The notes: generated from the sequence alone by a model not told the origin. A stretch of DNA of 21,487 nt from a virus (IMGVR_UViG_2703718857_000003:1-21487); one strand, 5' to 3'; shown: positions 1,944 through 20,491, numbered from the stretch's first letter. Numbers and translations: made by a program.

Positions 1944-1957
1944 TTTTCGTCACCTCC

Positions 1958-4696: not shown

Positions 4697-4699
4697 GCG

Positions 4700-4903: not shown

Positions 4904-5412
4904 CAGATTTGACTCACGATGCAGCGCGGCTTGTCCTGGATGCGCGCCACTGCCCAGCGCATATCCCGCCACAGCTCATCAATGGTGCTGTCAATGCTGT
5001 CGGCCTTCTTGTCGCCCTTGGCACTGGCATCCACGCCGCGGTAACGCTCATAAAGCGACGCGGTCGCCATCGCACACACGGCGCGCTCGTAGTAAAAAAC
5101 TTTGATGCTTTCACCGTCGATGTCGTCCGCCGGAACGTCCGCCAGACGCGTAAAACCGGCGGCAATTGTCTGTTCGCGGTACTCGTACAGCTCCGCATTC
5201 GTCTCCGCCATGCCTGACTTGATGGCCTCACGCAGACGGGCGGGGGCGACGGTCTGCTCAAGGCGCATACGTTCCCGGACGCGCTTCGGGTCGATATCGG
5301 GAAAAAAGAACGTGTTTTTAATCACCGGCTCGTCGCCTGCCGGTTGCGGGATAACCACCGTACCCTCACCGGACACGGGAGCCTCCTTTCGCGGAATAAT
5401 CAGCGTCATCAT
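4903..5412 (-). CDS. L: Head completion/stabilisation protein L
   Basis: 169 aa from internal Met (MMTLIIP...), the length of P2 gpL; synteny M-L-X. Confidence 0.75.
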   Translation of the reverse strand: MMTLIIPRKEAPVSGEGTVVIPQPAGDEPVIKNTFFFPDIDPKRVRERMRLEQTVAPARLREAIKSGMAETNAELYEYREQTIAAGFTRLADVPADDIDGESIKVFYYERAVCAMATASLYERYRGVDASAKGDKKADSIDSTIDELWRDMRWAVARIQDKPRCIVSQI

Positions 5413-5511
5413 GACTACCTCTGAAAAGTCGGGCGGTGGACGCCGGTGTAGTGTCAGGTGATTCACCGTCACTGACCGGCGTGCCGCCCTGGCGCGGGGC
5501 GCATTCGGTTG

Positions 5512-6255
5512 TTAACTGGCTTTCTTTTTCGGGCGTCCACGTTTTGCCGGTGTCACGCTCCGGGTCTTACGCGGAGTGCGGGTGGCCGCTTTGGGCTGCG
5601 GCTCCGGCTTCGGTTTCAGCTCCCGCTCCAGTCGTTCAATCTCTTTTTTGACGCCTGCCTGACAGTCGAGCTGTGTCGCACGTTGCAGGTGCGCCAGCGC
5701 ACCGGCGGCATCACCAGCGTCACGCAGAAACAGACCGGTGATTTTGTGCAGCTTTGCGCGCACTTCATCAGGCATGTCAGCCGTGGCGGTCAGTTCGAGG
5801 GTGTCCGTCAGCAGGCGGGGATTCACAGACTCACCGGCAGCGTGAGCGCGCATGGCCGCAAGCGCCACCTCCTCGGTGAACATGTACGGCGGGGTGCGGC
5901 GGTGTTTACCCGGCATGGTCAGACCGTACTTCAGGGCATAACGGGCAATCTCCAGCGCACCGGCAATATCGCCGGTATCCAGACGCCACAGCATGACCGT
6001 CATCAGAATGTCATCCTGTGCACCTTTGCCCTGCTCCAGCACGCCGTTCACCCACGGCAACCAGAACGGCAGCAGTTCGCGTTTTTTCGCGGCCTTCAGC
6101 TCTTTTGAATAAATTGCTTTCAGTGTGCGCTGGTCTGCGGCCAGCTTGACCAGCATCTGCTCATAGACAGTTGCATGTCGCAGCGGGGCGGCTTCCCGCT
6201 GCGCGGTCATCGCTGCCGAGACCCGCATCATGTGGCGCTGTGCGGGACTCGTCAT
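5512..6255 (-). CDS. M: Terminase endonuclease (small) subunit M
   Basis: 247-aa ORF, the length of P2 gpM; basic Lys/Arg/Pro-rich C-terminus; synteny N-M-L. Confidence 0.8.
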   Translation of the reverse strand: MTSPAQRHMMRVSAAMTAQREAAPLRHATVYEQMLVKLAADQRTLKAIYSKELKAAKKRELLPFWLPWVNGVLEQGKGAQDDILMTVMLWRLDTGDIAGALEIARYALKYGLTMPGKHRRTPPYMFTEEVALAAMRAHAAGESVNPRLLTDTLELTATADMPDEVRAKLHKITGLFLRDAGDAAGALAHLQRATQLDCQAGVKKEIERLERELKPKPEPQPKAATRTPRKTRSVTPAKRGRPKKKAS

Positions 6256-6258
6256 CGG

Positions 6259-7332
6259 TTACGCTCCCGGCTCTGCGGTCGCCTTAGCCGGTGTGGAGAA
6301 ATCACCGACCTTAATTTTTTCCACCAGACAACCGGCGGCGTAGTCTTCCACCACGTAATCAATGTTCATTGACTCGTAGTTCTCCACGCGGTCGAGTTTC
6401 GGGTTTTCCTCAATCACGCGGCGATGGCTGTCATCCATGTAGTAGATGGACAGGTTTTCCAGCTTCGTGATGAGCATCGCATCCGCCGGGAAGTACGGGA
6501 CGCGTACCGCCGGCAGGTTACCGATGCGTTTCTGACTGATGATGACGTCAGCGGCCAGCATTTCGCTGTTGTCCTGCTCCTTGTTGACGATGGGGAAATA
6601 CTTGTCCGCCAGTAGCTGACGCCCCACAATCACCACAAGGTCAGGGTCTTCCTGATACCACGGCTCAATCAGGTTGTTGGTCGCATCCATCACCAGTGCA
6701 TCGAGGCTGGCATAATCACCGCCCTTACCCACGCGGATGACCTCAGAGGTCGTGTGACCTTCCTCGTCCGTAACCTTGCTCATCACGCGCGCCGGGGCTT
6801 CATTGCGGTATTTCTGCAGCCAGCCGACCGCCACATCCTGCAGCATCGGATTGCTGCTGCGGTCAGAGGTTTCTGCACGCTTCACACCGTTAAAACCGGC
6901 CATGATGAAATCAAGGGACTGGCGTTTGATAATGGCGTTACGGACACGGAGCTGGAAATCCTGATAACGCGCCCACAGGTCAAGCGTTTTGTAGCGGATA
7001 TAAAAATCGAAGTTAATCTGGTCGCATTCGTACTTGTTTGACGCCAGCTTCGAGAAGTCCTTCGGCTGACGCTCGGTGCCACCGGCGGTGTCGGTGGTGC
7101 TGGCGATGGAGCCGGTGACACCGATACCAATTTTTTCCCCTTTCATTTCGCTGACCGGCACAATGTTGATGCGGGTCAGAAAGTCAGAGGACTCCTGCAT
7201 GGTGTTCATCAGGGTCTGGGTGACCGACGGTTCAACGGTGAATTTTTTCGACACATCACCGGCGTCGATGCCGTTCAGTTCGGCAACACGGGACAGGTAA
7301 GCATTAAATTTAAAGCGGGTTTCCTGGCGCAT
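6259..7332 (-). CDS. N: Major capsid protein N
   Basis: 357-aa ORF, the length of P2 gpN; synteny O-N-M. Confidence 0.85.
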   Translation of the reverse strand: MRQETRFKFNAYLSRVAELNGIDAGDVSKKFTVEPSVTQTLMNTMQESSDFLTRINIVPVSEMKGEKIGIGVTGSIASTTDTAGGTERQPKDFSKLASNKYECDQINFDFYIRYKTLDLWARYQDFQLRVRNAIIKRQSLDFIMAGFNGVKRAETSDRSSNPMLQDVAVGWLQKYRNEAPARVMSKVTDEEGHTTSEVIRVGKGGDYASLDALVMDATNNLIEPWYQEDPDLVVIVGRQLLADKYFPIVNKEQDNSEMLAADVIISQKRIGNLPAVRVPYFPADAMLITKLENLSIYYMDDSHRRVIEENPKLDRVENYESMNIDYVVEDYAAGCLVEKIKVGDFSTPAKATAEPGA

Positions 7333-7390
7333 AGTTTTTCCTGAAATTAAGGGTTAATCGTGAAGGTTTTCCCGGACTGACTGACGCCGG

Positions 7391-8245
7391 TCAGCAGTTC
7401 GTCATCAGGGCGTCACCGCCACCACCGGTGGCCTTGCTGCGGCGCTGCTGGGTCAGACTTTCGGTGTGGTCGAGACTGTTTTTCAGGCGGGTGAATGCCT
7501 GGCTGGTTTCATCCGCCCTGTCAGTCACCTCCTGCTTAAGTGAGGAAAAGGCGGTTTCCATCTCAGCGAGGCGCTGCTCAGTGGCGCTCAGTTTTTCCTG
7601 CACATGTTCAGCGACAGCGGTCACCGCTTCATGCACGTCATTCAGACGGGCATCATCGCTGGCCTGTTTGCGGCCAAAAATGGACTTCACCTTTTCGGTC
7701 AGGGCGGTGAACACGGTTTCAGGCAGGTCTTCAAATTCCAGCTCAACAGGCGTTGCCACTGAAATCAGGTTTTCAGGGCTTAATTTGAAGCGGTTCAGGG
7801 GGTTGTGTTTTGCCGTGCGGCAGAATTCCAGGTATTCCGTGCCGAGGCTTGCCGGGTCATCGGTGACGGCCAGCCCCACCAGATAACATTTGCCGGTATT
7901 GGCAAAGTTCGGCTGAATTTCCATTGAGGTATAGACCTTCTGCGCGGCCTTGTTCATCGCGATAAGGTCATCGGTCGGGGTGATTTTCGCAAACAGCGCC
8001 CATTTGCCTTTCAGCGCCGAATCATCGTCAATCTTTTCGGCCTTCAGTTCGGCCACATCGCCATAACGCTTAAAAATACCGTCAGGCAGGATGCCGCGCA
8101 GATGTTCCAGGTTAATGCGGCAACCATAGACACGCGGGTCAAAGGTTTCGGCCATTTCCTGAATATCCTGCGCACTGATGACACGCCCGTCACAGGTGTC
8201 ACCCTCAACGCCGATACGAAAGAATTTTGAGACTTTTTTTGCCAT
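7391..8245 (-). CDS. O: Capsid scaffolding protein O
   Basis: 284 aa from the internal ATG at 8245 (MAKKVSKFFRIGVEGD...), the length of P2 gpO; coiled-coil-like C-terminus; divergent from P. Confidence 0.8.
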   Translation of the reverse strand: MAKKVSKFFRIGVEGDTCDGRVISAQDIQEMAETFDPRVYGCRINLEHLRGILPDGIFKRYGDVAELKAEKIDDDSALKGKWALFAKITPTDDLIAMNKAAQKVYTSMEIQPNFANTGKCYLVGLAVTDDPASLGTEYLEFCRTAKHNPLNRFKLSPENLISVATPVELEFEDLPETVFTALTEKVKSIFGRKQASDDARLNDVHEAVTAVAEHVQEKLSATEQRLAEMETAFSSLKQEVTDRADETSQAFTRLKNSLDHTESLTQQRRSKATGGGGDALMTNC

Positions 8246-8418
8246 TGTCAGGAGTCCTGAATAGTGATTAGAGGAGTCACATGTCGGCATCAGTTTCCCG
8301 ACGATGCGCATCCTCCGCCATCAGTCCCGGATGGCTTATCACTGACACAACAGCACCTTAGCGAATCGCGGGGCGCGACTCAGTAGCCTTGCCGTGTATT
8401 CATCACGGCGAGGTATTC
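8246..8418. promoter_or_regulatory. Divergent late-promoter region between O and P (expected Ogr-dependent)
   Basis: Position only: the intergenic space between divergent O and P start codons is where P2 carries its O- and P-operon late promoters. I could not identify the activator dyad with confidence. Confidence 0.3.
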
Positions 8419-9656
8419 ATGACCATCACCACAGACACCACTCTTTTACACGACCCGCGTCGTCAGGCGGCGCTGCTGTACTGGCAGGGGTTTTCCGTGC
8501 CGCAGATTGCCGCCATGTTGCAGATGAAACGCCCGACAGTGCAGAGCTGGAAACAGCGCGACGGCTGGGACAGCGTTGCCCCCATCAGCCGTGTCGAAAT
8601 GAGTCTGGAAGCGCGGCTGACCCAGCTCATCATCAAACCACAGAAAACCGGCGGTGACTTCAAGGAAATTGACCTGCTGGGACGCCAGATTGAACGACTG
8701 GCACGGGTCAACCGCTACAGCCAGACCGGCAACGAGGCAGACCTTAATCCGAACGTCGCTACCCGTTCTGGTCGGGTGAACTGTTCAACCGGGGACGCGC
8801 CAGCGCCGCCGAACGCGTGGAAATCGACGTCAGTCATAACGCACTTGCCGGAGGTCTTCTCTGTGCGGACGGCCAGTGGCGGCAGATTGTCACCATTGAG
8901 GACGCCCTGAAAGGTGGCTGCACGCTGTTCGACATTGAGCAGCTTAAACGCGAAAACAGCGCCGACGATTTTAAAAACCTGTTCATGTGTGAATTTGTTG
9001 ACGACAAGGCGTCGGTGTTCCCGTTCGAGGAGCTGCAACGCTGCATGGTCGACACGCTGGAAGAATGGGAAGACTATGCGCCGTTTGCCGCCAATCCGTT
9101 CGGCTCACGTCCGGTATGGATTGGTTACGACCCGTCACACCGTGGCGACAGTGCCGGATGCGTGGTGCTGGCACCGCCGGTGGTGGCCGGTGGCAAATTC
9201 AGAATACTTGAGCGTCACCAGTGGAAAGGCATGGACTTTGCCACCCAGGCTGAATCCATCCGCGAACTCACCGAAAAATACAACGTCGAATACATCGGTA
9301 TTGATGCCACCGGCCTCGGTGTCGGCGTGTTCCAGCTCGTGCGCTCGTTCTATCCCGCCGCGCGCGATATCCGCTACACGCCGGAAATGAAAACCGCAAT
9401 GGTGCTCAAGGCAAAAGACGTTATTCGCCGTGGCTGTCTGGAATATGACGTCAGCGCCACCGACATCACCAGCTCGTTTATGGCTATCCGCAAGACCATG
9501 ACCAGCAGCGGACGCAGCGCCACCTATGAGGCCAGCCGCAGCGAGGAAGCCAGCCACGCCGACCTCGCCTGGGCGACCATGCACGCCCTGTTAAATGAGC
9601 CACTCACCGCGGGTATCAGCACTCCGCTGACATCCACCATTCTGGAGTTTTACTGA
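8419..9656 (+). pseudogene. P: Large terminase (ATPase) subunit P, internally deleted and frameshifted
   Basis: The N-terminal part (MTITTDTTLLHDPRRQAALLYWQGF...NPNVA) is in one frame and the C-terminal RNaseH-like nuclease part (YPFWSGELF...VWIGYDPSH...IGIDATGLG...HADLAWA) is in another; the frames overlap between 8658 and 8910. The total span is ~412 codons versus ~590 for P2 gpP, and no Walker A/B ATPase segment is present. Confidence 0.7.
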
Positions 9657-10684
9657 TGAGCAAGAAAAAAGGGAAAACACCGCGACTAGCGGCAAAAAAA
9701 ATGACCGCCAGCGCCCCGAAAATGGAGGCATTCACCTTTGGTGAACCGGTGCCGGTACTCGACCGCCGTGACATTCTGGATTACGTCGAGTGCATCAGTA
9801 ACGGCAGATGGTATGAGCCACCGGTCAGCTTTACCGGTCTGGCAAAAAGCCTGCGTGCTGCCGTACATCACAGCTCACCGATTTACGTCAAACGTAATAT
9901 TCTGGCTTCAACGTTTATTCCGCACCCGTGGCTTTCCCAGCAGGATTTCAGCCGCTTTGTGCTGGATTTTCTGGTGTTCGGCAATGCGTTTCTGGAAAAG
10001 CGTTACAGCACCACCGGTAAGGTCATCAGACTGGAAACCTCACCGGCAAAATATACCCGCCGTGGGGTGGAAGAGGATGTTTACTGGTGGGTGCCGTCCT
10101 TCAACGAACCGACAGCCTTCGCGCCCGGCTCCGTATTTCACCTGCTGGAGCCGGATATCAATCAGGAGCTGTACGGCCTGCCGGAATATCTCAGCGCCCT
10201 TAACTCTGCCTGGCTGAATGAGTCGGCCACGCTGTTCCGCCGCAAGTATTATGAAAACGGCGCACATGCCGGATACATCATGTACGTCACCGATGCCGTG
10301 CAGGACCGCAACGATATCGAAATGCTTCGCGAAAACATGGTTAAGTCGAAAGGCCGCAATAACTTTAAAAATCTGTTTCTCTATGCCCCACAGGGGAAAG
10401 CCGACGGCATTAAAATTATCCCGCTCAGTGAAGTGGCAACGAAGGACGATTTTTTTAATATCAAAAAAGCCAGCGCCGCTGACCTGCTGGACGCGCACCG
10501 CATCCCCTTTCAGTTGATGGGGGGCAAGCCGGAGAACGTCGGGTCGCTGGGTGATATTGAGAAAGTGGCAAAGGTCTTTGTCCGCAATGAGCTTATCCCG
10601 TTACAGGACAGGATCCGCGAGATAAACGGCTGGCTCGGTCAGGAGGTCATCCGCTTTAAAGATTACAGTCTAGAATCTAATTAA
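9656..10684 (+). CDS. Q: Portal protein Q
   Basis: 342-aa ORF, close to the 344 aa of P2 gpQ; start overlaps the P stop (ATGA); synteny P-Q next to cos. Confidence 0.85.
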   Translation: MSKKKGKTPRLAAKKMTASAPKMEAFTFGEPVPVLDRRDILDYVECISNGRWYEPPVSFTGLAKSLRAAVHHSSPIYVKRNILASTFIPHPWLSQQDFSRFVLDFLVFGNAFLEKRYSTTGKVIRLETSPAKYTRRGVEEDVYWWVPSFNEPTAFAPGSVFHLLEPDINQELYGLPEYLSALNSAWLNESATLFRRKYYENGAHAGYIMYVTDAVQDRNDIEMLRENMVKSKGRNNFKNLFLYAPQGKADGIKIIPLSEVATKDDFFNIKKASAADLLDAHRIPFQLMGGKPENVGSLGDIEKVAKVFVRNELIPLQDRIREINGWLGQEVIRFKDYSLESN

Positions 10685-10694
10685 GTACCCTTAG

Positions 10695-10712
10695 CGCCGT
10701 CTCCAGACGGCG
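10695..10712. terminator. Bidirectional hairpin between convergent Q and the cargo operon
   Basis: Perfect 7-bp GC-rich stem CGCCGTC/GACGGCG with loop TCCA, 11 nt after the Q stop and between the two convergent gene ends; followed by T-rich sequence on the plus strand. Confidence 0.45.
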
Positions 10713-10779
10713 TGATTCTATGCAATCCAGGCAAGATTAACCCCCAACACCTTCAATTACTATATGGTTTAATAGAAAT

Positions 10780-11469
10780 TCAATCTTTAACTTCAATATA
10801 TGAAGAAGAAAACCATATAGATTTTTTCCCATTTATGTATTTAGAAACAGGCGAGCCATCTTCGTTCATTGCCTCAGCACTAAATGTTACATAATACATT
10901 CCTTTTTCTTTTGTCGAAACAAGATAGTTCAAGCGTCTTTCGGCAGAGATAGGAACGGATATATCATATAAAGGTATATTTTTAGCTTTTCCTTGCGAGC
11001 TACTTTCTTCATTAAGAACAGCCAACTCCTCATAATAATTTGGATAAAAAACTTCCGTAGCGACTTGCTTTGCACCGGCCGATAAAACACGACTAACAGC
11101 AAGGGACTTGTTATTAAGCTTCACATAAATTCGCTCATTACTGTTATTCCTAATAGTTACAATAGGCTTTATATAAAACACATCATCGATTTTAACAACA
11201 TTAACGTCAACATTAAAAAATGTCGATTCTGTATTTCTAATTCTATTTCTTAACTCTATAAGATCAGCTTCTGCCTTATCCCTTTGGTGCAAAACATCAA
11301 AAGTATATCCTCCCCACACAAGTGTCAAAACAGCGCACAATGACATCACGACGTTATTAAACTGATCGTGTGTTCTGTAAATATCTTTGAATTTTAAAAT
11401 TAATAATAGACATGCTATGAATAGCATGCCTATTATCAGCCAGTGTTCTTTTACAAATTCAAAGTTCAT
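10780..11469 (-). CDS. Uncharacterised membrane protein with two N-terminal TM helices and a beta-rich soluble C-terminal domain (cargo)
   Basis: 229-aa ORF; hydrophobic segments WLIIGMLFIACLLLIL and VVMSLCAVLTLVWGGYTF, then a Ser/Asn/Lys/Val/Tyr-rich soluble domain. AT-rich codon usage; start 2 nt after the stop of the upstream ORF. No family recognised by eye. Confidence 0.6.
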   Translation of the reverse strand: MNFEFVKEHWLIIGMLFIACLLLILKFKDIYRTHDQFNNVVMSLCAVLTLVWGGYTFDVLHQRDKAEADLIELRNRIRNTESTFFNVDVNVVKIDDVFYIKPIVTIRNNSNERIYVKLNNKSLAVSRVLSAGAKQVATEVFYPNYYEELAVLNEESSSQGKAKNIPLYDISVPISAERRLNYLVSTKEKGMYYVTFSAEAMNEDGSPVSKYINGKKSIWFSSSYIEVKD

Positions 11470-11471
11470 AG

Positions 11472-12554
11472 TTAGTCACTCGCATGCCTCGCATCACCAT
11501 CTTCAGGGAAATTGATCCCCTGTCCGATCTCACGGTTCGTTGGACGAGCAGAAACAAAGCCTCTATTTTGTCTTTTTAAACGCAACTCTAGAACTTGAGA
11601 AACTCTATCAAAGTTTAATCCATCCATTGCAACCTCTTTTTTCCCTTCAATATGAGATCGAAGTTCCTCACTTATACGATTATCAACCGTTGAAGCGAAG
11701 GCTACATCATGATTAAAAATGGCCCCCATAATTAACATAAACGCAATTCCGGCCTTTCTATTATTTGTTTTAAATTGTAGCCAAACATCCCCCGGAGACA
11801 TCAACATTTGTTGAGCAGTCAAGGATAACTCTCCATTATTAGAAAGTCTTTCCATCTCAAACTGAACAACTTCGTTTGTATACTCGCCATCAAACTCTTC
11901 GCCAATTAATAGCGCAAGTACCTGCACTCTATCGACCAGCTCAGCCAGCTGCTTAAGAGTATGATGCCGAATGGCTTCTGCTTGCTCGACTCTTAAGCTA
12001 GTACAGAAAATATTATCCGTTATAAAGAATGACATTAACCAATGCAGTACTTCTTCTGACTTCCCGCCCAAAGAGAATACGGTCTGGTATGCAGTAAACG
12101 ATTTCTGAAGAGCTAATGGAATCTCTCGTCTGCGAACTGGCTCTCCCCATGTGACTCTACGTCTTACATGAAACCCTTCATTATTACCTAAACATTCACG
12201 CTCAAAATACGCGGAAGATGCAATAACTCCAGGAACAACCATATCACCTGACAAAGTGAAAACAACATCACCGACCTGCATATCTATGAGGAAATTTTCA
12301 ATTTGGGTATGAATATTTCTTGAACCAATAGTATCTAACCCATCAACCTTTTGATTAATATTTTCATGGTTAATTTCATCATTAAAGTCAATTTGATCTG
12401 GACTTAACCTATCCAAGTGAGCAGTAGCAACCATATTGCGTTCAAGGAAGTCTGCAAAATATCTATACTTAATCCCAGGTCTAACGACCCAACACTTTAC
12501 ATTTAAATCAACATGTTGTACTGAAATAGCTCTTTGTGATGAAGTTCCAAGCAT
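11472..12554 (-). CDS. Uncharacterised soluble protein, first gene of the two-gene cargo operon
   Basis: Long AT-rich ORF; 361 aa from the first ATG at 12554, or 366 aa from the TTG at 12572. No Walker, HNH, DxD-nucleotidyltransferase or other motif recognised by eye. Confidence 0.55.
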   Translation of the reverse strand: MLGTSSQRAISVQHVDLNVKCWVVRPGIKYRYFADFLERNMVATAHLDRLSPDQIDFNDEINHENINQKVDGLDTIGSRNIHTQIENFLIDMQVGDVVFTLSGDMVVPGVIASSAYFERECLGNNEGFHVRRRVTWGEPVRRREIPLALQKSFTAYQTVFSLGGKSEEVLHWLMSFFITDNIFCTSLRVEQAEAIRHHTLKQLAELVDRVQVLALLIGEEFDGEYTNEVVQFEMERLSNNGELSLTAQQMLMSPGDVWLQFKTNNRKAGIAFMLIMGAIFNHDVAFASTVDNRISEELRSHIEGKKEVAMDGLNFDRVSQVLELRLKRQNRGFVSARPTNREIGQGINFPEDGDARHASD

Positions 12555-12778
12555 AGCTGATCCATAATTCAAAAAATTTTACGCATTTTACATATTTTTA
12601 TTTAAGACTCTAGAGCGTTAGGAATGATGAATCGCTTCAACAGATTATTTTTTGTGCAGATAGTGTGCTTAAACCAACTCATCGTAACGAAAGCACTCGC
12701 CTGAATCGTAAAGATAACATCTCATGACTCGATTCATAGGCTAATAGTATTATGCAATGGTCGTTAATGGAGCGCGCA

Positions 12779-12797
12779 GTGCTTTCCCCGCCTCGCC
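12779..12797. other. cos site: 19-nt cohesive-end sequence GGCGAGGCGGGGAAAGCAC (read on minus strand)
   Basis: Exact match, on the minus strand, to the 19-nt cohesive-end sequence as I recall it for phage P2 (not verified against a database). Followed towards the Q side by TGCGCGCT and then AT-rich cargo. A GC hairpin plus T-run (12797-12820) abuts it on the A side. Confidence 0.6.
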
Positions 12798-12939
12798 CGC
12801 CCGCTTCGTGGGGCGGTTTTAATGCAGATGCATTATGAGCCCTGAGCTGCGCCTAACGTGACACAGTTCACGAGAAAAATAGGAATTATCAAATGCAATT
12901 TCATGCAGATAGAGAGGCATGAGATCCCGAAGCTTATAT

Positions 12940-14292
12940 TCAACCCTCTGCCGAAATATTTCTTTGGAGAAATGCTCTAATTTTTTGCCTGAAAGCCTCA
13001 CATTCATCAGGCTTTAACCTCTCAAGGTATTCAAAAATCCTAGTTTCATCCCAGCCGTTGTTATAGGTTTTCACTACCCCTCGATAAACTTGCTTATCAA
13101 GTTTATCGTTACCTCTAGTTGTAACTCTCGGGATCGATTCATCTTGGCCGTATGCTTGATAGAAATCCTTCTCAACGCTTTGGAAAGGTATGCATAAAAT
13201 ATTTTCACCTCGAGCATACCTTTGACCTAATTGATCTCCGTCTAACACTGAGATCACATTCTGTTGAGTCGTGAGAAAGCTCTCTCTCTCATTACGACGC
13301 ATTAAATCAATGACATTAGTTCCTCCACCAACATATATTATTTTATATTCGTAGAAGTAATCATTCCCAGGAGCATTAATTATATATTCTAAGAAATTTT
13401 GCAGAACTTCATCTTCAGTAAGAATGTACTTATCCCATCCTTTAAATCCAAAAAGCGTACTTTTTATATAATTATATGATCGATTTGTAATTGTAGTTCC
13501 AGCATCACCTTCGCACATATAGTACAATTCATCATCATTCAGCGTTTGCATTAAAGCAAGTGAATGTGTTGTGAATACAATATTCACCGAGTGTCTCTGA
13601 CAATATTTCCTTAGCACTGCTATAAGATGGACTTGCGCCGAAGAGTCTAGTGATATATCTATCTCATCTATGACAATGAATTTTCTTTTGAGCTCAATCA
13701 TTCTAAATAAATTCAAAATAAAATACTCACCCGAGCTAAAGTAATCCTCCCTTATGTATGTTCCGTTCTCATTCAATCTGAAATAGAAAATTTCATTTTT
13801 TACAGAAAATGCTTTAAGATTATTGTAAGAAGAAGACTGATATACCTCATTGAGTATATTTATCAAATCCTCGGGAACGCTATAGCTTTCAAACGCAATA
13901 CTTTTTCTAAGTTCAGTATCAATTTTACTAAGTGTTGGGAAGTTATTGAACCTCATTCCATGAGGAATGGGCAACTCGACATAAAGATTGGATTTTATAT
14001 CTGCTGGAATTATTTGCTTAGTATCTATTACCTTCAAATTCTCATCATAGACATATACTATATCTTGATCATTAATATTATATACTATACTACTGTCAGG
14101 ATTGAATATATATCTAGAAGATGTCTTTATGAATGTATCTGCTGATTGTAAATTTTTAATTGCTTTGATTAGCGTTGTCTTTCCAGCACCGTTCTTTCCT
14201 ACAATGCAAGTCAGTTTATTTTCAGAAAGATCAATAGCAAATGACATATGTTCAACATGCTGGATTTTCGAGATCTCAATATTTATTTTCAT
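12940..14292 (-). CDS. OLD-family ABC-type ATPase with C-terminal Toprim-like domain (retron-associated effector candidate)
   Basis: 450 aa; Walker A GKNGAGKTT near the N-terminus, Walker B FIVIDEIDISLD, H-loop-like VFTTHS; C-terminal ILTEDEV and VLDGDQLG resemble the Toprim Glu and DxD motifs. Start ATG is 1 nt after the RT stop, indicating translational coupling. Confidence 0.7.
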   Translation of the reverse strand: MKINIEISKIQHVEHMSFAIDLSENKLTCIVGKNGAGKTTLIKAIKNLQSADTFIKTSSRYIFNPDSSIVYNINDQDIVYVYDENLKVIDTKQIIPADIKSNLYVELPIPHGMRFNNFPTLSKIDTELRKSIAFESYSVPEDLINILNEVYQSSSYNNLKAFSVKNEIFYFRLNENGTYIREDYFSSGEYFILNLFRMIELKRKFIVIDEIDISLDSSAQVHLIAVLRKYCQRHSVNIVFTTHSLALMQTLNDDELYYMCEGDAGTTITNRSYNYIKSTLFGFKGWDKYILTEDEVLQNFLEYIINAPGNDYFYEYKIIYVGGGTNVIDLMRRNERESFLTTQQNVISVLDGDQLGQRYARGENILCIPFQSVEKDFYQAYGQDESIPRVTTRGNDKLDKQVYRGVVKTYNNGWDETRIFEYLERLKPDECEAFRQKIRAFLQRNISAEG

Positions 14293-14293
14293 T

Positions 14294-15283
14294 TTAATTT
14301 ACATTCTTGTAAAAAAGCATATCGACAATCGTATTTCCGTATTTTCTCTTTAGCTTATCGAGATAACTCTTATCAATTGTGTTTATATGATTCAAAAGAC
14401 CAGAAACTGTATTAACGCCCTTTTCCAAGATCTCACTATCATTCAATCCGCTAGTTTTAACCTTAGGATCTTTTATTATAGAATCTATAAATTTATCTTT
14501 ATCCGTTACATAAAAATGAATCAAATGCTCAAGCTTTCTTTTTATTTTAATATCAACAGAGACTATCTGAGACGGTAAAATAACCATCCCCAGCAGCTTA
14601 ATCTTACTGCCTTTTTTAATCAATTTAGTTTTTGCTGAGTTTAGTTTGAAATGTCCCTTCCCAAACTCACCCAGCAGGTCACTTACTACAGAATGAATAT
14701 TCTCAAAGCCCTCATCATTTTCAGAGGAAATAATAATATCATCTGAATAGCGTGTGAATATATATTCATGGTTAATACAATATTGCTGCATCTCAACATC
14801 AAAGTCATATAAACATGCATTGCTGAAAGCTGGTGATGTCGGGAACCCTACAGGCAACGAATTATCGATAATAATATAATCTAAAATTTTATCCAAGTGT
14901 ATATTTAAATCGGAAATGGGAACGTTCGATAAGTTATCAACTAAAACTGATCGTGCATATTCACGAGTTATCGATGGGAAAAAGCTTTTAATATCAGTAT
15001 TGAAGAATATCTTACTACAGGCGTGAAGTTTTACTGCATCATAAGTGCTGCTTCCTTTTCTATACGAAAACACAACATCCTTATTTACTTTCAAGTATGA
15101 AAGAACAAATTCATTTATGAATTTGTGATACTCTTTTAGTTTAGAAGTGGGCTCAGCAATTAACCTTTCATCAAAGGTTATAAATTTAGTTTGTTGAAAT
15201 GGTTCAAACGAAAGAAAGTTTTGAAAGGAATCTTTTTCGAAGAATGCAATATTGAAGGCTTTTTCGAGACTAAGGGGTTTCAT
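14294..15283 (-). CDS. Retron-type reverse transcriptase
   Basis: 329 aa with RT motifs in order: NTDIKSFFPSI (domain 2), LPVGFPTSPAFSNA (domain 4), FTRYSDDIIIS (YxDD catalytic box). Motif order and spacing parallel retron Ec86 RT as I recall it (NIDLEDFFPSL / LPQGAPSSPKLANL / YTRYADDLTLS); size is typical of retron RTs. Confidence 0.8.
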   Translation of the reverse strand: MKPLSLEKAFNIAFFEKDSFQNFLSFEPFQQTKFITFDERLIAEPTSKLKEYHKFINEFVLSYLKVNKDVVFSYRKGSSTYDAVKLHACSKIFFNTDIKSFFPSITREYARSVLVDNLSNVPISDLNIHLDKILDYIIIDNSLPVGFPTSPAFSNACLYDFDVEMQQYCINHEYIFTRYSDDIIISSENDEGFENIHSVVSDLLGEFGKGHFKLNSAKTKLIKKGSKIKLLGMVILPSQIVSVDIKIKRKLEHLIHFYVTDKDKFIDSIIKDPKVKTSGLNDSEILEKGVNTVSGLLNHINTIDKSYLDKLKRKYGNTIVDMLFYKNVN

Positions 15284-15289
15284 CGTTGG

Positions 15290-15440
15290 CTGAGCTTTTG
15301 TTTTTTGAGTTGAATGGATTCTAAGATGAATGCTTTAACTCTCAGTCTTTCCTCACCCCAGACACCCTCCCTTCGCAGGCTTTACTTCTTGTACATACCT
15401 TCTCTCGAAAGAGAAGGCAGTACAAGAGCAACACTATATA
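15290..15440 (-). ncRNA. Candidate retron msr/msd non-coding RNA region (boundaries uncertain)
   Basis: Non-coding stretch immediately upstream of the RT containing a long interrupted hairpin at 15387-15427 (8-bp stem TCTTGTAC/GTACAAGA, internal loop, 7-bp stem CCTTCTC/GAGAAGG, loop TCGAAA), as expected for an msd stem. I could not identify a1/a2 flanking repeats by eye. Confidence 0.3.
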
Positions 15441-15456
15441 AAGGCCTGTAGAGGCC
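15441..15456 (-). terminator. Possible intrinsic terminator downstream of A (minus strand)
   Basis: 5-bp GC stem GGCCT/AGGCC with loop GTAG, followed on the minus strand by TTTATATA. The stem is short, and it could instead be part of the ncRNA. Confidence 0.25.
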
Positions 15457-15609
15457 AACATTTATGACTGGAGATGCTCCTAGTCGTTGGCATAAAAACA
15501 CTTTAAACCAGATTATGAGCATTTACAACATTTCAAGCCGTCGAACGCAGCCCCAATCAGAAAAGAACTCACACGGCCATCATAACATCATGATTTAGAT
15601 GGATATAAA

Positions 15610-17880
15610 TCACCCTTCATGCTTCACCCACTCGTCCGCTATCGGGTATACAAATCTTTTTTCGCCATAAACCACTATTCCGCCACGAGCCAGCGCCTGA
15701 AGTTCCCACCGCTGCGGCGTGATACCCTGCTGCGCCAGTTCGAAGCGGATGCGCGGAATCTGAGCCCTCTCGGCTTTTGTCATTCGCCCTGATGGTGCTA
15801 TCTGATGCGATTTTAATGGCTCATCGCTTCTTTGCTGTCGATTTTGCTGCGGCGCGCCGTGTTTTAATGCACTCCTGAGCACCGTCACAACTTCGGGGTC
15901 ATCCCATGCAATAACCCCATCATCGACAAGATTTAGCACCGCTGCGGCATGCTCAGACGGCGTAGGTGTCATAACTGGATCGCCACCGTCGGCAAGCTTT
16001 CCACAGTTATTGACAGGACTCCGAGGCGCGGCGATGCCGCTTTTTAAAGTCAAAGGCTCAACGACCGGAACTTTCGGCACAATGCGCCAGTCCGTCGTTC
16101 TGGTGATATGAATATGACGCGCGCCGAGATGCGGCGCGTAAATGCCGACCACTCTCTCGACTTCTTCCTCGTACTCGTTAACGTCATCCGACGGGCTACG
16201 GGCGACCCTGACAGTCTGACAATCGCGCGGGACATTTGCCCCGCCCTGCGCGCTGATATACAACGCAAAATCACCACTGTCTGCAGCGGCGCGTGCAGCC
16301 TCGACGCGCTCGTCAAACTCATCAGCAATGCTGACGCCGCGAGGCAATTTGCGTAGTTCACGGTAAGCCCCCATTGTCGGCAGACCAACCGTTTTAAATT
16401 GCGGAATGCGCCACGTTGACGCCCATGCGGTAACAGCCGCAGCAGTATCTTTCAGCGGCCTGCCGGTATCGTTATCGAGCTGACCATCCAGTGCATAGCC
16501 ATCGATGTTTTTTGAGATGTATTTCGCGATATACCCCGCAGCACCGCCCCGGTTAAGATGTTTTGCCTGAAAACGGTTTCGCGCGGCTCCTCTTTCGTCT
16601 CCATCCTCTTTGAGCGCGTAGCGACGCATGATTTCAATAATCTGGTTACGCTGGCGTGGATTACAAAAAAGCATCATATGCCAGTGCGGCGTTCCGTCGT
16701 GGTGTGGCTCGACGACACGCAAACCGTAGACCTGTAAATCATTATCCTTGAATGCCGTGCGCATCAGGCTCCAGATATGGCAGAGATAACGCTGCGCATC
16801 CTTTGGATTAAATGCCTCATCGTTCCAGCCGTGATTTAGCTGGACGGTTTTACTTTCGCCTTTTCTGACCTGACGTGTCGGGTGATACTTTGACGGCGCG
16901 GTCAGCGTGATAAACATCCCCACATCACCCTCTGCGGCGGCGTAACGCTCAATACCGGCGATGGTGTTCATCAGCTCCATCCGGCGAATTTCTGGATTAG
17001 AAATACTGCCCATCACCTTACTGATAAGGTCGATGCGCTCGCCGGTTTCCTTGTTTTCAAGGTCACACGATTTAAGAAATTCCAGATTTGCCTGGCGGCG
17101 CGCACGCACATCACGAATGGCATGTTTACTGGCATAAGGAGAACGGTCTTTATTGACCTCCCCGACAGCAATCAGTAACGCCTCATGCCAGCGCATACGC
17201 TGGCCTTTAAGCTGATGAGTCCACCACTCATCGTTAAACAGGCGGGCAATGGCAGAATATGCCTGCCTCGTGGTCATCTGCCCTTTACGGTATTTTTTCC
17301 AGTAAAGCGGGGAAATATTGAAAGCACGTGCAGCGCCAGCAACATGACCATAGAGGTGAGCCTGCGCCTCATCCGTAAACAGCGATTCTTTTTCGCCATG
17401 TGCATCAACCCAGGCATCGCAGAGTTCCTCATACATCATGAAAAGCTGCGATGAGATACGGGCAGCAAACTTTTTCAGCTCCTTGTCATTCATCCCCGGC
17501 AGGCGCGCATACTGGTCGCGCTCTGCCAGAAACAGCAACGACGCGTCGGTGTTCATTTCATGGCGCTGATTCACACGCTCAATGCGCGGCCATAAACGAC
17601 GCTGAAAAGTGGATGTGAGGAAATAAAACCCGTGCACCGGGCTTTTATTGCGCCGGATGTAGTCATAGCGTGAAGTAAACAGCGAGCGCAAAAAGTAAGG
17701 CAGGCGGTTAATCGTGGATAAAACACCTTGCACCTGACGCATCTCGTCACGTGTAAGGGGTCTTTCGCGCCCGACGGCCTCGCGTGGCGCGTTCCATGCA
17801 TAAGCACCGATAAACGCCTTACCGGTGCCTGCGGCAAATGCTGACGGAGGGACAAAACGCCCGGAGGCTTTAACGGCCAT
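15610..17880 (-). CDS. A: Replication initiation protein A (rolling-circle initiator, P2 gpA-like)
   Basis: 756 aa from the ATG at 17880 (MAVKASGRFVPPSAFAAGTGK...), close to the ~761 aa of P2 gpA; synteny B-small ORFs-A. The maximal ORF extends to 17922. Confidence 0.8.
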   Translation of the reverse strand: MAVKASGRFVPPSAFAAGTGKAFIGAYAWNAPREAVGRERPLTRDEMRQVQGVLSTINRLPYFLRSLFTSRYDYIRRNKSPVHGFYFLTSTFQRRLWPRIERVNQRHEMNTDASLLFLAERDQYARLPGMNDKELKKFAARISSQLFMMYEELCDAWVDAHGEKESLFTDEAQAHLYGHVAGAARAFNISPLYWKKYRKGQMTTRQAYSAIARLFNDEWWTHQLKGQRMRWHEALLIAVGEVNKDRSPYASKHAIRDVRARRQANLEFLKSCDLENKETGERIDLISKVMGSISNPEIRRMELMNTIAGIERYAAAEGDVGMFITLTAPSKYHPTRQVRKGESKTVQLNHGWNDEAFNPKDAQRYLCHIWSLMRTAFKDNDLQVYGLRVVEPHHDGTPHWHMMLFCNPRQRNQIIEIMRRYALKEDGDERGAARNRFQAKHLNRGGAAGYIAKYISKNIDGYALDGQLDNDTGRPLKDTAAAVTAWASTWRIPQFKTVGLPTMGAYRELRKLPRGVSIADEFDERVEAARAAADSGDFALYISAQGGANVPRDCQTVRVARSPSDDVNEYEEEVERVVGIYAPHLGARHIHITRTTDWRIVPKVPVVEPLTLKSGIAAPRSPVNNCGKLADGGDPVMTPTPSEHAAAVLNLVDDGVIAWDDPEVVTVLRSALKHGAPQQNRQQRSDEPLKSHQIAPSGRMTKAERAQIPRIRFELAQQGITPQRWELQALARGGIVVYGEKRFVYPIADEWVKHEG

Positions 17881-18145
17881 ATGAGCCAAAAGCCTCTGAA
17901 CAACGCTTGCTGAGTTGCTCAACCTGCGCGTTTAAATCAGCAAAAGACTTTGCGCTTCCGGTCAGAATATCGTGATGCATCAGGCCGGAAACGAGCTGGC
18001 TTAATTTCGGGTAATAACCAACCACCGCCAGCCATTCCTGACCGGCGTTTTTACCGCTTTCAGCTCTCTTTTTCTCGTGGAGAATAAACTGAAAGCTGTC
18101 ACTGGTAACGACATAACGTTCGCCAATTTCAATACGAATACTCAT
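17870..18145 (-). CDS. Small early-region protein (P2 orf83-position)
   Basis: 91-aa ORF tightly packed between A and the zinc-finger ORF, start overlapping the upstream stop. Confidence 0.5.
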   Translation of the reverse strand: MSIRIEIGERYVVTSDSFQFILHEKKRAESGKNAGQEWLAVVGYYPKLSQLVSGLMHHDILTGSAKSFADLNAQVEQLSKRCSEAFGSYGR

Positions 18146-18366
18146 GCCGTTCTCCGGTAATGTTTGTTTTTTGCTTCAAAGACTGACTGGCAGGAAACAC
18201 AACGCGTGGCTGACGGATAAGCCGCACGACGGGCAGCAGGTATTGGCGCGTCACACTCTTCGCAAACCAGCGCAGAAACACCGCAATGCTTTACCCTTGC
18301 CGCGTTAATCTGGCGCTCCAGTAATTCAGCCTGTTGTTCCTGAATAAAATCCACGTTGTCCGGCAT
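18142..18366 (-). CDS. TraR/DksA-like C4 zinc-finger protein (P2 orf82-position)
   Basis: 74 aa with CGVSALVCEECDAPIP...RCVSC, two Cys pairs of a C4 zinc finger; start overlaps the upstream stop. Confidence 0.55.
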   Translation of the reverse strand: MPDNVDFIQEQQAELLERQINAARVKHCGVSALVCEECDAPIPAARRAAYPSATRCVSCQSVFEAKNKHYRRTA

Positions 18367-18671
18367 TACCAGCTCCTTTTGTCGTTCAGTTTCTTAAATT
18401 CATCAGCGCAATAGCTGGCAATTTCAGCCGTTACTTTTGTCAGTTCATCTACGGAGGAAATTTGCTTGTGAAATACAGCGCGTTTCACAAGTAAATTGAC
18501 CACATCAGACAGGAGGTTTAATTCGTTCTGATAAATCGCGATAACAGATTCAGTTATTTCGTGTTTTTCTTTATCAAGCCTAAGTTGAATAAGAGACAAA
18601 TCGCCATTTTTCATAACGGAGATTTTTAAGGCATTGTTCAGTAATACAATTGAACGAGAACAGGACATCAA
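18366..18671 (-). CDS. Small early-region protein (P2 orf81-position)
   Basis: 101-aa ORF in an overlapping-stop/start chain with its neighbours. Confidence 0.45.
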
Positions 18672-18892
18672 AGCACCTCCCCGCGAGACAATCCGATATT
18701 GTGAAATTTTTCCGACTCCTGACTGAGCAGCTCGACTATCTCCACGCGGGATAACTCCGCCTTTGTGATGTGGCGAATCATGGCGTCAAGATGAGAAGAA
18801 AAGCGCGTCGCTGCATCGGCCTGTGCTTCGGTTCTGGCCTGTTGCAGCAGTAATGCGTATTTACCGCACTGATTTTCAGAAACTATATGCAT
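18668..18892 (-). CDS. Small early-region protein (P2 orf80-position)
   Basis: 74-aa ORF, same operon chain downstream of B. Confidence 0.45.
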
Positions 18893-18955
18893 GACTTTCT
18901 CCAGGCAAAAAGAAGCCCCGCACGATTAAGTGCGTTAAAAACTCTGGTTAATTAT

Positions 18956-19456
18956 TTAATGCAGATATTGCTCTGGTTTAACCGACGTCAGAATTGTCGG
19001 TGCATACTCAAACAGGCTGAATAATTCACGTAATGCACGGAATAAAGCATCACGCCAGTAACATGACTCTTCATTAATTCGCCAGTATGGCTGGTTGAAT
19101 TCTTTTTCAGTCAATCCGGCATGCATAAATAAAGTACGACGCTGACTGACTGTTAAAAAACTAATATATGCATACTCACTTGCGCCAACCTGACGGCGTT
19201 TTGAGAATGCACCACGCAATTCATCAATTGCACATACCAGTCGTTCACGTTCGACGTCGTTCATTTCTTCAAAACACATCGTTGCGTGACGCTGTTTTAA
19301 CTGAGCATGGAAGCAAACCGTTAGCCGTTCGCGTTCCATCATCTGATTATAATAATCGCATGTCTCCTGCCAGCGAGGGACGGCCAGATGCTTACCAATT
19401 ATCCGGCGCATAGTTGCTGGCTGTTTTTCAACGAGATTGAGCGTCATCACTGTCAT
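18956..19456 (-). CDS. B: Replication protein B (helicase-loader-like, P2 gpB-like)
   Basis: 166 aa from the internal Met (MTVMTLNLVEK...), the length of P2 gpB; sits between cox and A. Confidence 0.7.
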   Translation of the reverse strand: MTVMTLNLVEKQPATMRRIIGKHLAVPRWQETCDYYNQMMERERLTVCFHAQLKQRHATMCFEEMNDVERERLVCAIDELRGAFSKRRQVGASEYAYISFLTVSQRRTLFMHAGLTEKEFNQPYWRINEESCYWRDALFRALRELFSLFEYAPTILTSVKPEQYLH

Positions 19457-19623
19457 TTCCATACCCTCCGGCTTTTCAGAAAGGTCAGAGCCTTTTTTAA
19501 CGGACTCTGTTTTTTGGTGCGGATAATGATTCCCTTACGCCCCTTACCGTGGGTGATGGTGAAGTCAATCGCCCTGGGGCTTTCGTTACGCAATAACTGA
19601 GCAATACAACGAGGCTCGTTCAT
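19453..19623 (-). CDS. Small early ORF between cox and B (start uncertain)
   Basis: The maximal ORF 19453..19713 overlaps the cox-like ORF by 80 nt. The internal ATG at 19623 has a GGTGGAAAGG Shine-Dalgarno and lies 10 nt after the cox stop, so I prefer it. Confidence 0.35.
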   Translation of the reverse strand: MNEPRCIAQLLRNESPRAIDFTITHGKGRKGIIIRTKKQSPLKKALTFLKSRRVWK

Positions 19624-19633
19624 CCTTTCCACC

Positions 19634-19990
19634 TTAAGCCGCACGGCCATGTCTTGATTTGCTGTAACTAATGCGATTTTTCCAGTCATGCCATTCTGTC
19701 GGAGCTTCATCAACTAGCTGGGCTGCGTACTTGTCCCACTCACGGCGATTAATCCATAATTCAGCTTTCCCTCTTGGTTTTAATGGGTCTGTCATGTAGA
19801 AGGCTGGCAGCTTTCCTGCTTTAGCCATTTCAGCCACCGCGCGTGGTGTCTTACCGATGTAAAGAGCAAAACCTTCTTTCGACAGCAAATCAGATGGGCG
19901 CTCTGAAATCTGAATGCTTTTACGTTTGGCTTCATTTTCGAAACTTGCCTCATCGCTAGTTGGACAAGAAATTTCTACATTTGTCGTCAC
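19634..19990 (-). CDS. cox: Cox/Apl-like excisionase and early-operon regulator (HTH)
   Basis: Helix-turn-helix-like segment FALYIGKTPRAVAEMAKAGKLPAFYMTDP resembles the P2 Cox / 186 Apl family; first gene of the early operon, divergent from C. A GTG at 19990 has a GGAGGA Shine-Dalgarno; the ATG at 20005 has none. Confidence 0.6.
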   Translation of the reverse strand: MTTNVEISCPTSDEASFENEAKRKSIQISERPSDLLSKEGFALYIGKTPRAVAEMAKAGKLPAFYMTDPLKPRGKAELWINRREWDKYAAQLVDEAPTEWHDWKNRISYSKSRHGRAA

Positions 19991-20005
19991 TTTGCTATCC
20001 TCCAT

Positions 20006-20098
20006 AAGATTTGCGATTCACCAACTGGAGCCATCTAGAGCCTTTTTGAGCGAATCACAAATTGCCAAGTAACAATATAATTGGAGATTAGCAAAATT
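20006..20098. promoter_or_regulatory. Immunity switch region between divergent cox and C, with imperfect direct repeats (candidate repressor operators)
   Basis: GCGATTCACCA (20013-20023) and GCGAATCACAA (20050-20060) form a direct repeat 37 bp apart; TATAAT at 20076-20081. P2-type C repressors bind direct repeats, but the assignment here is by position only. Confidence 0.35.
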
Positions 20099-20398
20099 AT
20101 GTCAAGTGAACAAAGTGAGAAACTAAAGCTCATCCGTGAATCCGAACGCCTTAAAACTAAGGAACTTGCTGAATTAATTGGAATTAATTACTACACATAT
20201 CATGGATATGAATCAGGAAAATCAAAAATGCCTATGGAAGCAGGTATGAAGCTGTTTAAGCATCCACGCTTTCGCAAGTATCGTGACTGGTTCATGTTTG
20301 ATGAAACAGATCCAGCAGCTGGACAAATAGCCCCGGCTCTCGCACACATTGGGCAAGACTCAACAACCTTGCACCACTCAGACCAGAAGACTGGCTGA
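20099..20398 (+). CDS. C: Immunity repressor C (P2 C-like)
   Basis: 99 aa from the ATG at 20099; C-terminal GQIAPALAHIGQ...QKTG matches my recollection of the P2 C repressor C-terminus, with a divergent N-terminal half (different immunity specificity). GGAG Shine-Dalgarno upstream. Confidence 0.75.
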   Translation: MSSEQSEKLKLIRESERLKTKELAELIGINYYTYHGYESGKSKMPMEAGMKLFKHPRFRKYRDWFMFDETDPAAGQIAPALAHIGQDSTTLHHSDQKTG

Positions 20399-20491
20399 CG
20401 ATTTATTCAGCATATGTGTGTAGTAAATGTACGAAAGAAAATTGCATTAATTTTCAAGTAGTAGAAGTAAACAGCGTCATCGGAGGGCTTT

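Follow-up and report, generated by a model that had tools for sequence, protein, structure and literature searches.

The 21,487-nucleotide (nt) viral sequence IMGVR_UViG_2703718857_000003:1-21487, called the window throughout, is a P2-like prophage read in reverse of the P2 map order, and it carries an AT-rich island of about 4.9 kb between the portal gene Q and the replication gene A. This island is very likely a P2-like cos-proximal hotspot in which two independent cassettes of low guanine-plus-cytosine (GC) content are split by the core of the cos site. Cassette A (module 1), coding for a DUF8426 protein and a protein with two transmembrane (TM) helices, occupies the portal side, and cassette B, which by its sequence is a type I-B1 retron, occupies the side of the replication gene. 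The composition and anatomy of the island, the family assignments of its genes, the independent assortment of the cassettes and their mosaic breakpoints were all directly observed.

Two low-GC cassettes flanking cos

In composition, the island stands out clearly from its surroundings. The GC content is 0.359 over positions 10685-15609, compared to 0.562 for 1-10684 and 0.531 for 15610-18366, and in sliding 500-nt windows it ranges from 0.50 to 0.62 over 501-10750, drops to 0.29-0.44 over 10751-15500 and is again 0.51-0.58 by 15501-16500. When non-overlapping 500-nt windows inside and outside the island are compared, the mean GC is 0.351 (n = 9) versus 0.535 (n = 32; Mann-Whitney U = 3, p = 1e-5), confirming the AT-rich block of about 4.9 kb reported in a preliminary description of this DNA. 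The A/T-rich codons and GC-rich neighboring genes noted there are likewise reflected in the GC content of third codon positions (GC3), which is 0.283, 0.308, 0.297, and 0.306 in the four cargo genes versus 0.633 in Q, 0.555 in A, and 0.61-0.71 in the other late genes. In the cargo genes, first and second codon positions (GC1 and GC2) are also low, and not GC3 alone. Two refinements apply. The block is low in GC overall but not uniform, as 100-nt windows reveal an internal peak of 0.55-0.60 at 12726-12875, mid-island, which corresponds to the conserved cos core. The supposedly GC-balanced backbone is GC-rich in the late genes and A, but the early/immunity end (18367-21487) forms a second lower-GC region with a GC content of 0.435, dipping to 0.40 at 19751-20500.

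The anatomy of the locus follows from its comparison with P2. Pfam matches in the window comprise gpD, gpU, the small and large terminase, portal Q, gpA, Cox, a helix-turn-helix (HTH) repressor and an integrase, and blastn alignments to P2 (AF063097) are collinear with 95-98% identity. P2 homology ends at position 10666, 18 nt before the Q stop codon, recurs only at 12771-12826, and restarts at 15628, 18 nt within the 3' end of A, so that the limits of 10700-15600 first given for the island were accurate to within about 30 nt. The portal gene Q (9656-10684, + strand; Pfam Phage_portal) is 97% identical to P2 Q up to 10666, and its final 18 nt (10667-10684) are part of the variable cassette. 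The replication gene A (Pfam Phage_GPA, E = 3e-123) lies at 15610-17922 on the - strand. Between them, a 59-nt conserved cos core (12769-12827, GC 0.56-0.60) contains the 19-nt cohesive-end sequence at 12779-12797 on the reverse strand, the reverse complement of GGCGAGGCGGGGAAAGCAC, which has zero mismatches to the cosL/cosR sites annotated in P2 AF063097. Cassette A (10667-12770, - strand, GC 0.37) has no homology to P2 or to the related prophage locus L001, is 100% identical to locus L002, and stands in place of the ~160-170-nt spacer that separates Q from cos in P2 and most relatives. Cassette B (12836-15627, - strand, GC 0.33 over its two genes) sits where P2 has old-tin-orf91; no P2 homology is found over 12827-15627, and its identity is 99.9% to L001 and 98.0% to L022 (Escherichia coli A15). 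An inverted repeat (CGCCGTC-TCCA-GACGGCG, 10695-10712), read from the sequence between the convergent Q and TM-protein genes, might act as a bidirectional terminator; it was not called by a terminator scan.

Alignment of the cos region of six prophages showed that the 59-nt core is common to all of them, whereas the sequence beside it is unrelated. The two modules on the two flanks of cos, which the preliminary description had suggested to form one island in the prophage, are thus borne out by a cos site (12779-12797) with unrelated sequence on both sides. Comparing the same locus across related P2-like prophages, as had been proposed, revealed that modules do alternate and that they do so on each flank separately. 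Measured from the Q stop codon to cos, the portal-side interval is an empty spacer of 161-169 nt in L001, L022, L023, and P2, contains module 1 (2,094 nt) in the window, L002, L003, and L021, and holds an Ec48-family retron reverse transcriptase (RT) with a membrane effector (2,262 nt) in L024. From cos to the A stop codon, 894 nt without annotated cargo are found in L021, a DUF7380 gene in L024 (2,153 nt), an AAA ATPase in L023 (2,797 nt), the I-B1 retron in the window, L001, and L022 (2,812 nt), and an HTH + RT retron in L002 and L003 (2,924 nt). Across eight loci, the Q side shows three different arrangements and the A side five or more, and the two flanks of cos vary independently. Module 1 is partnered across cos by another retron (L002/L003), by no annotated cargo (L021), or by the I-B1 retron, which itself is mostly paired with the empty 161-169-nt spacer. 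In L024 (E. coli isolate 68, NZ_OX030728), the Ec48-family retron lies at 6179-8067 on the portal side of cos; thus, the Q flank can take other cargo too.

Both cassettes are rare. Among 5,426 complete E. coli genomes, module 1 DNA is present in seven and the I-B1 retron in 10, with zero genomes containing both. A synthetic query that joined the Q end to the cos core matched with both elements within ~370-390 bp, indicative of the short spacer, in 1,513 of 2,158 E. coli records. Of 60 records sampled at even spacing, 42 had the short spacer, three (~5%) had a Q end but no cos close by, and 15 had cos only, the latter taken to be P4-like satellites. From the summary counts and this sample, we roughly estimate that the portal-side flank is filled in only a small percentage of P2-like prophages.

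The window itself is a mosaic with breakpoints at cos. In the late genes and module 1 it matches L002 at 99.65-100% identity, whereas its cos core (100%) and retron (99.9%) match L001, and its A gene is 97.6% identical to L001 compared to 93.7% to L002. Left of the core, the sequence is that of the module-1 carriers, and the variable base within the core is the L001 allele. As this base is already of the L001 type, the switch in parentage must lie within 12771-12810, a stretch of ~40 bp that includes the cleavage site. L022 provides a second example, with a retron 98.0% identical to that of the window on a backbone with only 75-79% identity in Q/P, N/O, and A. Here, the tract of high identity extends from cos to ~15900, about 290 nt into A, where mismatch density jumps. 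Cassettes thus include coding 3' ends, namely up to ~95 codons of A (15610-15900) in the L022 exchange and six codons of Q (10667-10684), and a cargo swap consequently also alters the tails of gpA and gpQ. The C-terminal tail of gpQ reads KDYSLESN in all module-1 carriers and KNYSLDTDNG/D in P2, L001, and L023, which have the empty spacer; the 25 C-terminal amino acids (aa) of gpA are identical in all retron carriers, L022 included.

Judged from the sequences, these events resemble the replacement of one cassette by another through recombination rather than insertion, the crossovers lying at cos and in the 3' ends of Q and A. The horizontal acquisition proposed earlier is well supported by the retron shared across a divergent backbone, while acquisition "into" the flanks of cos describes the process less well than replacement does. 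P2-like genomes would trade cassettes through recombination, with one crossover at cos or immediately beside it and a second within the 3' part of Q or A. Since cassettes would be swapped through these points, each flank could vary alone and its cargo could stay AT-rich and foreign. The adjective "recent" is consistent with near-identical cassettes on divergent backbones but is not a matter that sequence composition can settle by itself, because low GC is typical of such cargo and may be maintained.

Several other explanations of the island have to be considered. As the parentage switches within ~40 bp of conserved core, as none of the 5,426 complete E. coli genomes contains both modules, and as a short-read contig with an identical module 1 ends at cos, the combination of module 1 and retron could be taken for an assembly mis-join across the short cos core, repeated in genomes with several P2/P4 elements. 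This is very improbable and largely refuted, because the double arrangement recurs in three independent assemblies: the 232-kb isolate contig L037, which is 100% identical to the window over 6940-20292 (13,353 nt), a second isolate contig, and a 173-kb metagenome scaffold; in the latter two (L039 and L041), both cassettes are present, identity is 99.6-99.97%, and the terminase gene is intact. The double-cargo arrangement is thus natural. Even less credible is the acquisition of the whole 4.9 kb as one block in a single event. Although the four genes share the same strand and a similar GC content, the halves are separated by a cos core of backbone type, each of them occurs alone in other prophages, and the best relative is L002 for the left half and L001 for the right half, which refutes this explanation.

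The low GC content might also have a cause other than recent acquisition, if the cassettes were old residents kept AT-rich by selection, e.g. H-NS silencing, or by amino-acid composition. The cassettes are AT-rich in every place where we found them, GC1 and GC2 are depressed alongside GC3, and the abstract of a preprint reports that H-NS silences immunity genes on AT-rich mobile elements; by analogy, and as far as that abstract goes, it suggests that the island may be silenced in this way. Against long residence, however, only 0.1-0.2% of genomes have these cassettes, and their distribution among closely related backbones is patchy; they are 98-100% identical on backbones 2-25% apart and have relatives in Photorhabdus, Pseudomonas, Shewanella, Serratia, and Providencia. 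We therefore regard old residence as improbable; this rarity, near-identity, and wide distribution of relatives indicate that the cassettes move, whatever keeps their composition.

The preferred reading, a hotspot with two separately exchanged cassettes, places the island in a known locus. Lying between Q (9656-10684) and A (15610-17922) and adjoining cos (12779-12797), it fits the cos-proximal gpA-gpQ hotspot. Retrons Ec67 and Ec86 reportedly replace DNA adjoining cos in 186-related prophages, as Dodd and Egan are said to have described in 1996. The gpA-gpQ locus is known as a cos-proximal defense hotspot with retrons among its cargo (Rousset et al. 2022, PMC9122126; also PMC13586616), with 1,650 arrangements in 18,150 loci and also non-defense genes, e.g. 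partition systems and toxins (PMC9122126). Both gene sets of the window are listed in Table S5 of that study (PMC9122126). The island shares with the P2 gpA-gpQ (old/tin) hotspot the locus and a variable AT-rich cargo that includes retrons; in contrast, published accounts treat it as one hotspot, whereas here two cos flanks are exchanged separately. P2 Old itself, a Class 1 OLD nuclease, is encoded on the same side of cos and, like the retron effector, is a member of the ATPase-TOPRIM superfamily, but it is a stand-alone 586-aa protein without a retron, and DNA homology is lacking.

The retron cassette

Cassette B encodes a retron RT and an effector of the OLD family. The RT (14294-15283, - strand, 329 aa) has a full-length PADLOC RT_I-B match (E = 6.5e-110) as well as a match to Pfam RVT_1, and the effector (12940-14292, - strand, 450 aa), an ABC-ATPase fused to a TOPRIM domain, matches PADLOC ATPase-Toprim_I-B over its full length (E = 3e-179). 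Motifs expected of both proteins are in place: the RT has the catalytic YSDD at residue 179, invariant in 12 of 12 RTs, and the effector has a Walker A GKNGAGKT (residue 32), SGE (187), Walker B FIVIDE (205), and the TOPRIM motifs EDEVL (293) and DGD (351). Where Mestre 2020 gives NAxxH and VTG, the RT has NACLY and LLG. LLG or ILG is found in 12 of 12 I-B1 RTs and NACLY in 10 of 12; with Ec78 having NFCLY in addition, these departures are read as subtype-wide variants and not as signs of decay. The gene order is ncRNA-RT-OLD (ncRNA, non-coding RNA), with 1 nt between RT and OLD. The OLD gene is directly downstream of the RT gene in all 11 diverged loci, which stem from Erwinia, Kluyvera, Photorhabdus, Pseudomonas, an Alcaligenaceae metagenome-assembled genome, Methylomicrobium, and Shewanella and have RT identities of 88-40%. 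A 62-aa open reading frame (ORF; 12819-13007, - strand) that lies partly over the 3' end of the OLD gene and extends into the cos core is unannotated in L001 and L022, belongs to no family, and is probably spurious. In Table S5A of Rousset et al., one record lists a small 'hypothetical' between RVT_1 and AAA_21.

Type I-B1 retrons are defined by an RT of clade 1 and by TOPRIM motifs IV and V of the form EDxxL and DxD, compared to EGxxE in type I-B2, the Eco8 type (Mestre 2020). They correspond to Class 3B in a review of OLD proteins, with OLD downstream of the RT, and Class 3 OLD enzymes are described there as biochemically uncharacterised (PMC10568477). As the PADLOC matches, the EDxxL and DxD motifs, and the ncRNA-RT-OLD order all agree with I-B1 as described by Mestre, the sequence identifies cassette B as a type I-B1 retron with a Class 3B OLD. 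Placement of the RT in clade 1 relies on its nearest RTs, those of the St85/Ec78 families. Among solved structures, the nearest RTs are a PDB chain named 'Retron' (22et) and Ec78, with Eco8 RT reaching only E = 4e-8, while a sequence search with the effector matched only generic ABC ATPases.

Two groups of described retrons invite comparison. Retron-Eco8 (I-B2, Class 3A OLD) is likewise a tripartite retron with an ATPase-TOPRIM effector of the OLD family, and an analogous mechanism is expected; its RT is distant and of clade 3, however, its motif IV is EGxxE and not EDxxL, and its OLD gene lies upstream of the RT gene rather than downstream. An identity with Eco8 or type I-B2 was therefore rejected on the absence of EGxxE, the downstream position of OLD, and the weak RT match (E = 4e-8). 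The Ec78, Ec83, and St85 retrons (RT clade 1; I-A, II-A1) are more similar in their RT (retron_St85_RT of NCBIfam, 177.6 bits; PDB Ec78 RT, E = 1e-19) and share the N(A/F)CLY variant of NAxxH, although 177.6 bits falls under the cut-off of the St85 family (235 bits), and the window RT has LLG in place of VTG. Their effectors also differ, consisting of an ATPase with an HNH protein or a nucleoside deoxyribosyltransferase instead of a fused ATPase-TOPRIM protein.

Upstream of the RT gene, a candidate ncRNA (msr-msd region, 15384-15493, - strand) contains a motif conserved in 12 loci. Its helix P1 (15491-15486 paired with 15458-15453) has compensatory changes in five of six pairs, and 98.7% of the cells in the P1 alignment are paired, compared to at most 41% in slid controls. 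P1 encloses a second helix, P2 (15485-15466), formed by the motif CGACUAGGAGyAkCUCCAGUCA that occurs upstream of every RT. On the 3' side of P1/P2, a conserved CCUCUAC...G..C stretch is followed by a long variable hairpin (15429-15384) that is lineage-specific and predicted to be stable in each of six lineages; in the window, the conserved CCUCUACAGGCC lies at 15454-15443. A conserved msr followed by a variable msd is the pattern expected of a retron ncRNA. Manual and RNAalifold searches for a canonical a1/a2 pair around msr and msd found none, and an outer helix proposed by RNAalifold had no covariation support. Candidate priming G residues are located at 15485 and 15445. Rfam yielded nothing at gathering thresholds over the window and chance-level matches only at E ≤ 10 over the island. 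A putative promoter (15500-15528, - strand) consists of a -35 box TTGTAA (15528-15523), a 17-nt spacer, and a -10 box TAAAGT (15505-15500), with a predicted start at A 15493; read by eye, a -10-like hexamer lies 6 nt 5' of a conserved AUG(C/U) in six lineages. A consensus promoter scan did not find this promoter; it called 18 promoter-like sites in total, compared to 18.7 expected, with none of the proposed sites among them.

By analogy with other retrons, the promoter would drive a structured ncRNA, part of which the RT would copy into multicopy single-stranded DNA (msDNA). The RT-msDNA complex might restrain the OLD-family ATPase-TOPRIM nuclease until a phage factor perturbs it, whereupon the freed nuclease would kill or arrest the cell by abortive infection. 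In Eco8, defense is abolished by mutating the YADD motif of the RT, the branching G, or the Walker A lysine of OLD, and phage single-stranded DNA-binding protein (SSB) has been implicated as the trigger (PMC10568477).

The DUF8426 cassette

Module 1 consists of two genes on the - strand. Protein A (11472-12554, 360 aa, with an alternative TTG start at 12572), listed in RefSeq as 'DUF8426 domain-containing protein' (PF28530), has an N-terminal PUA-like (EVE/YTH) domain predicted to form a β-barrel and a C-terminal domain without a recognized fold. Protein B (10780-11469, 229 aa) begins with two TM helices, continues as a helical stalk, and ends in a generic β-sandwich. Protein A gave no Pfam EVE, YTH, or ASCH match at E ≤ 0.01, sequence searches of solved structures matched neither protein, and neither residues 195-360 of protein A nor protein B showed a recognizable nuclease family or fold. 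Four aromatic residues of protein A (W22, Y30, W136, and W172) are invariant. An exhaustive profile search placed 897 representative clusters (50% identity) in the protein A family at E ≤ 1e-3 and 242 at E ≤ 1e-10; most members have 340-390 aa, with alignments spanning both domains. A word-indexed search recovered 48 clusters from Enterobacterales and Pseudomonas. The system is catalogued as #140 in Table S5B of Rousset et al., where it occurs 16 times, has no Pfam domain, and is annotated '2 TM in protein 2' (PMC9122126), and its sequences are absent from the tables of tested systems in that study (PMC9122126). In the literature searched, DUF8426 is not mentioned in any paper, and PDC-S02, a PADLOC candidate defense family discussed below, appears only in survey lists.

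The two genes, 2-10 nt apart, are kept together in all contexts examined but one, comprising six kinds of mobile or hotspot context. The pair adjoins icd in Serratia and Providencia, where partners are 41-43% identical. In Pectobacterium it is part of integrase islands that also contain CcdAB and TacAT modules, and in E. coli it borders a D5-primase element. It also occurs in Pseudomonas, and another P2/186-like prophage has it between its CI repressor and its integrase; a further copy adjoins smpB. A 68%-identical DUF8426 + TM pair in E. coli drafts (L029-L031, 8001-9760) lies at the edge of a different mobile element with a D5-type primase/helicase, PerC, and ProQ, beside xdh genes, and with 100 index blocks this variant is much more common in E. 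coli than the P2-borne one. The exception is a very distant DUF8426 member without a TM partner in a hydrothermal-vent metagenome contig (L035, 311-3695), located directly upstream of a MvaI/BcnI-type restriction endonuclease and a DNA methylase; its N-domain matches part of a PADLOC model for type II restriction endonucleases.

The N-domain of protein A matches PADLOC PDC-S02 (E = 2.5e-12) over profile positions 3-185 of 324 only, and ten distant family members likewise match in their N-terminal part only. As the full-length match failed and the C-terminal half is unrelated, identity with PDC-S02 was rejected. PDC-S02 and the EVE/YTH type IV restriction enzymes (N-domains of VcaM4I and McrB) share the N-terminal reader-domain fold, but module 1 differs in having a dedicated 2-TM partner and no detected nuclease domain, and without a recognizable nuclease domain it was not classified as a type IV restriction enzyme. 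The closest functional analogy is Metis, in which a PUA-like N-domain binds m6dAMP and activates an effector that is a membrane protein in type II systems (bioRxiv 10.1101/2025.11.05.686725). Metis, however, includes a calcineurin-like phosphoesterase, a HAD phosphatase, and a 3-TM protein, whereas the sensor-like and membrane parts are separate proteins in module 1. No MisA (PF00149), MisB HAD phosphatase (PF13419), or 3-TM MisC was found, protein B having two TM helices, and Metis was therefore also rejected as an identity.

On homology, predicted structures, and genomic context, the bases of all functional statements made here, module 1 is rather likely to be a defense system, with protein A as the presumed sensor and protein B as the presumed membrane effector. 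The PUA-like reader protein may sense a modified base associated with phages, in nucleic acid or as a free nucleotide, and, once activated, could switch on its 2-TM partner, which would then damage the membrane. This specific abortive-infection mechanism is tentative and less likely than not. It is also possible, though doubtful, that the pair represents a new abortive-infection family, in which a PUA-like reader gates a membrane-disrupting partner via a C-terminal domain of novel fold, and that the portal-side flank serves as a second cargo site swapped at cos. Module 1 could instead be a moron of another type, such as a toxin-antitoxin or addiction pair, a membrane protein for superinfection exclusion or lysis timing with its regulator, or a host-fitness factor. 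The lack of a known effector domain in module 1, the copies beside toxin-antitoxin modules (CcdAB, TacAT), and the partition systems and toxins also hosted by the hotspot (Rousset et al., PMC9122126) would agree with such a role. We nevertheless consider it unlikely, albeit a good deal less so than long residence of the cassettes. PDC-S02 and a restriction-enzyme model have the N-domain in common with protein A, its fold is the one with which type IV restriction enzymes and Metis read modified bases, and the pair recurs in prophage hotspots and integration sites, with one distant member adjoining a restriction-modification system.

Prophage decay and significance of the locus

Outside the island, the prophage is decaying. 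At the junction 3035-3036, P2 position 21219 (in the tape-measure gene T) is fused to P2 position 8377 (lysB), and the ~12.8 kb lost between them includes R, S, orf30, V, W, J, I, H, G, fun(Z), FI, FII, E, and most of T, so that the prophage cannot make tails. A segment with the endolysin gene K (3914-4442; P2 6970-7498) is inverted within its operon, with ~6-nt overlaps at both junctions, leaving the K ORF (3941-4438) on the + strand and its neighbors on the - strand. The large terminase gene P has a frame-shifting deletion of 517 nt at 8750-8766 (17-nt alignment overlap) and is split into ORFs at 8389-8910 and 8817-9656. L037 has the same deletion as the window, while L039 and L041 retain an intact 590-aa P gene. 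Since both of these carry the double cargo, the deletion postdates the joining of the two cassettes. The part from the C repressor to the integrase (20321-21457) is only 66-70% identical to P2 and thus represents a different immunity/integration module.

The compositional island as such is not new, as the cos-proximal hotspot of P2-like phages has already been published. Less described are its rarely occupied portal-side flank and cassette A. Added here are the resolution of the hotspot into two flanks, the mapped crossovers, an uncharacterised retron subtype, and the analysis of a catalogued cassette that lies outside the published tests. We found no characterised representative of I-B1 retrons, and the intact retron described here, together with its 11 relatives and an ncRNA supported by covariation, could guide experiments and retron engineering. 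Cassette A is widespread, and its predicted PUA-like sensor suggests a concrete trigger. Finally, the sequence evidence that cargo is exchanged through crossovers at cos and in the 3' parts of Q and A supports a mechanism on which Rousset et al. (PMC9122126) had only speculated.

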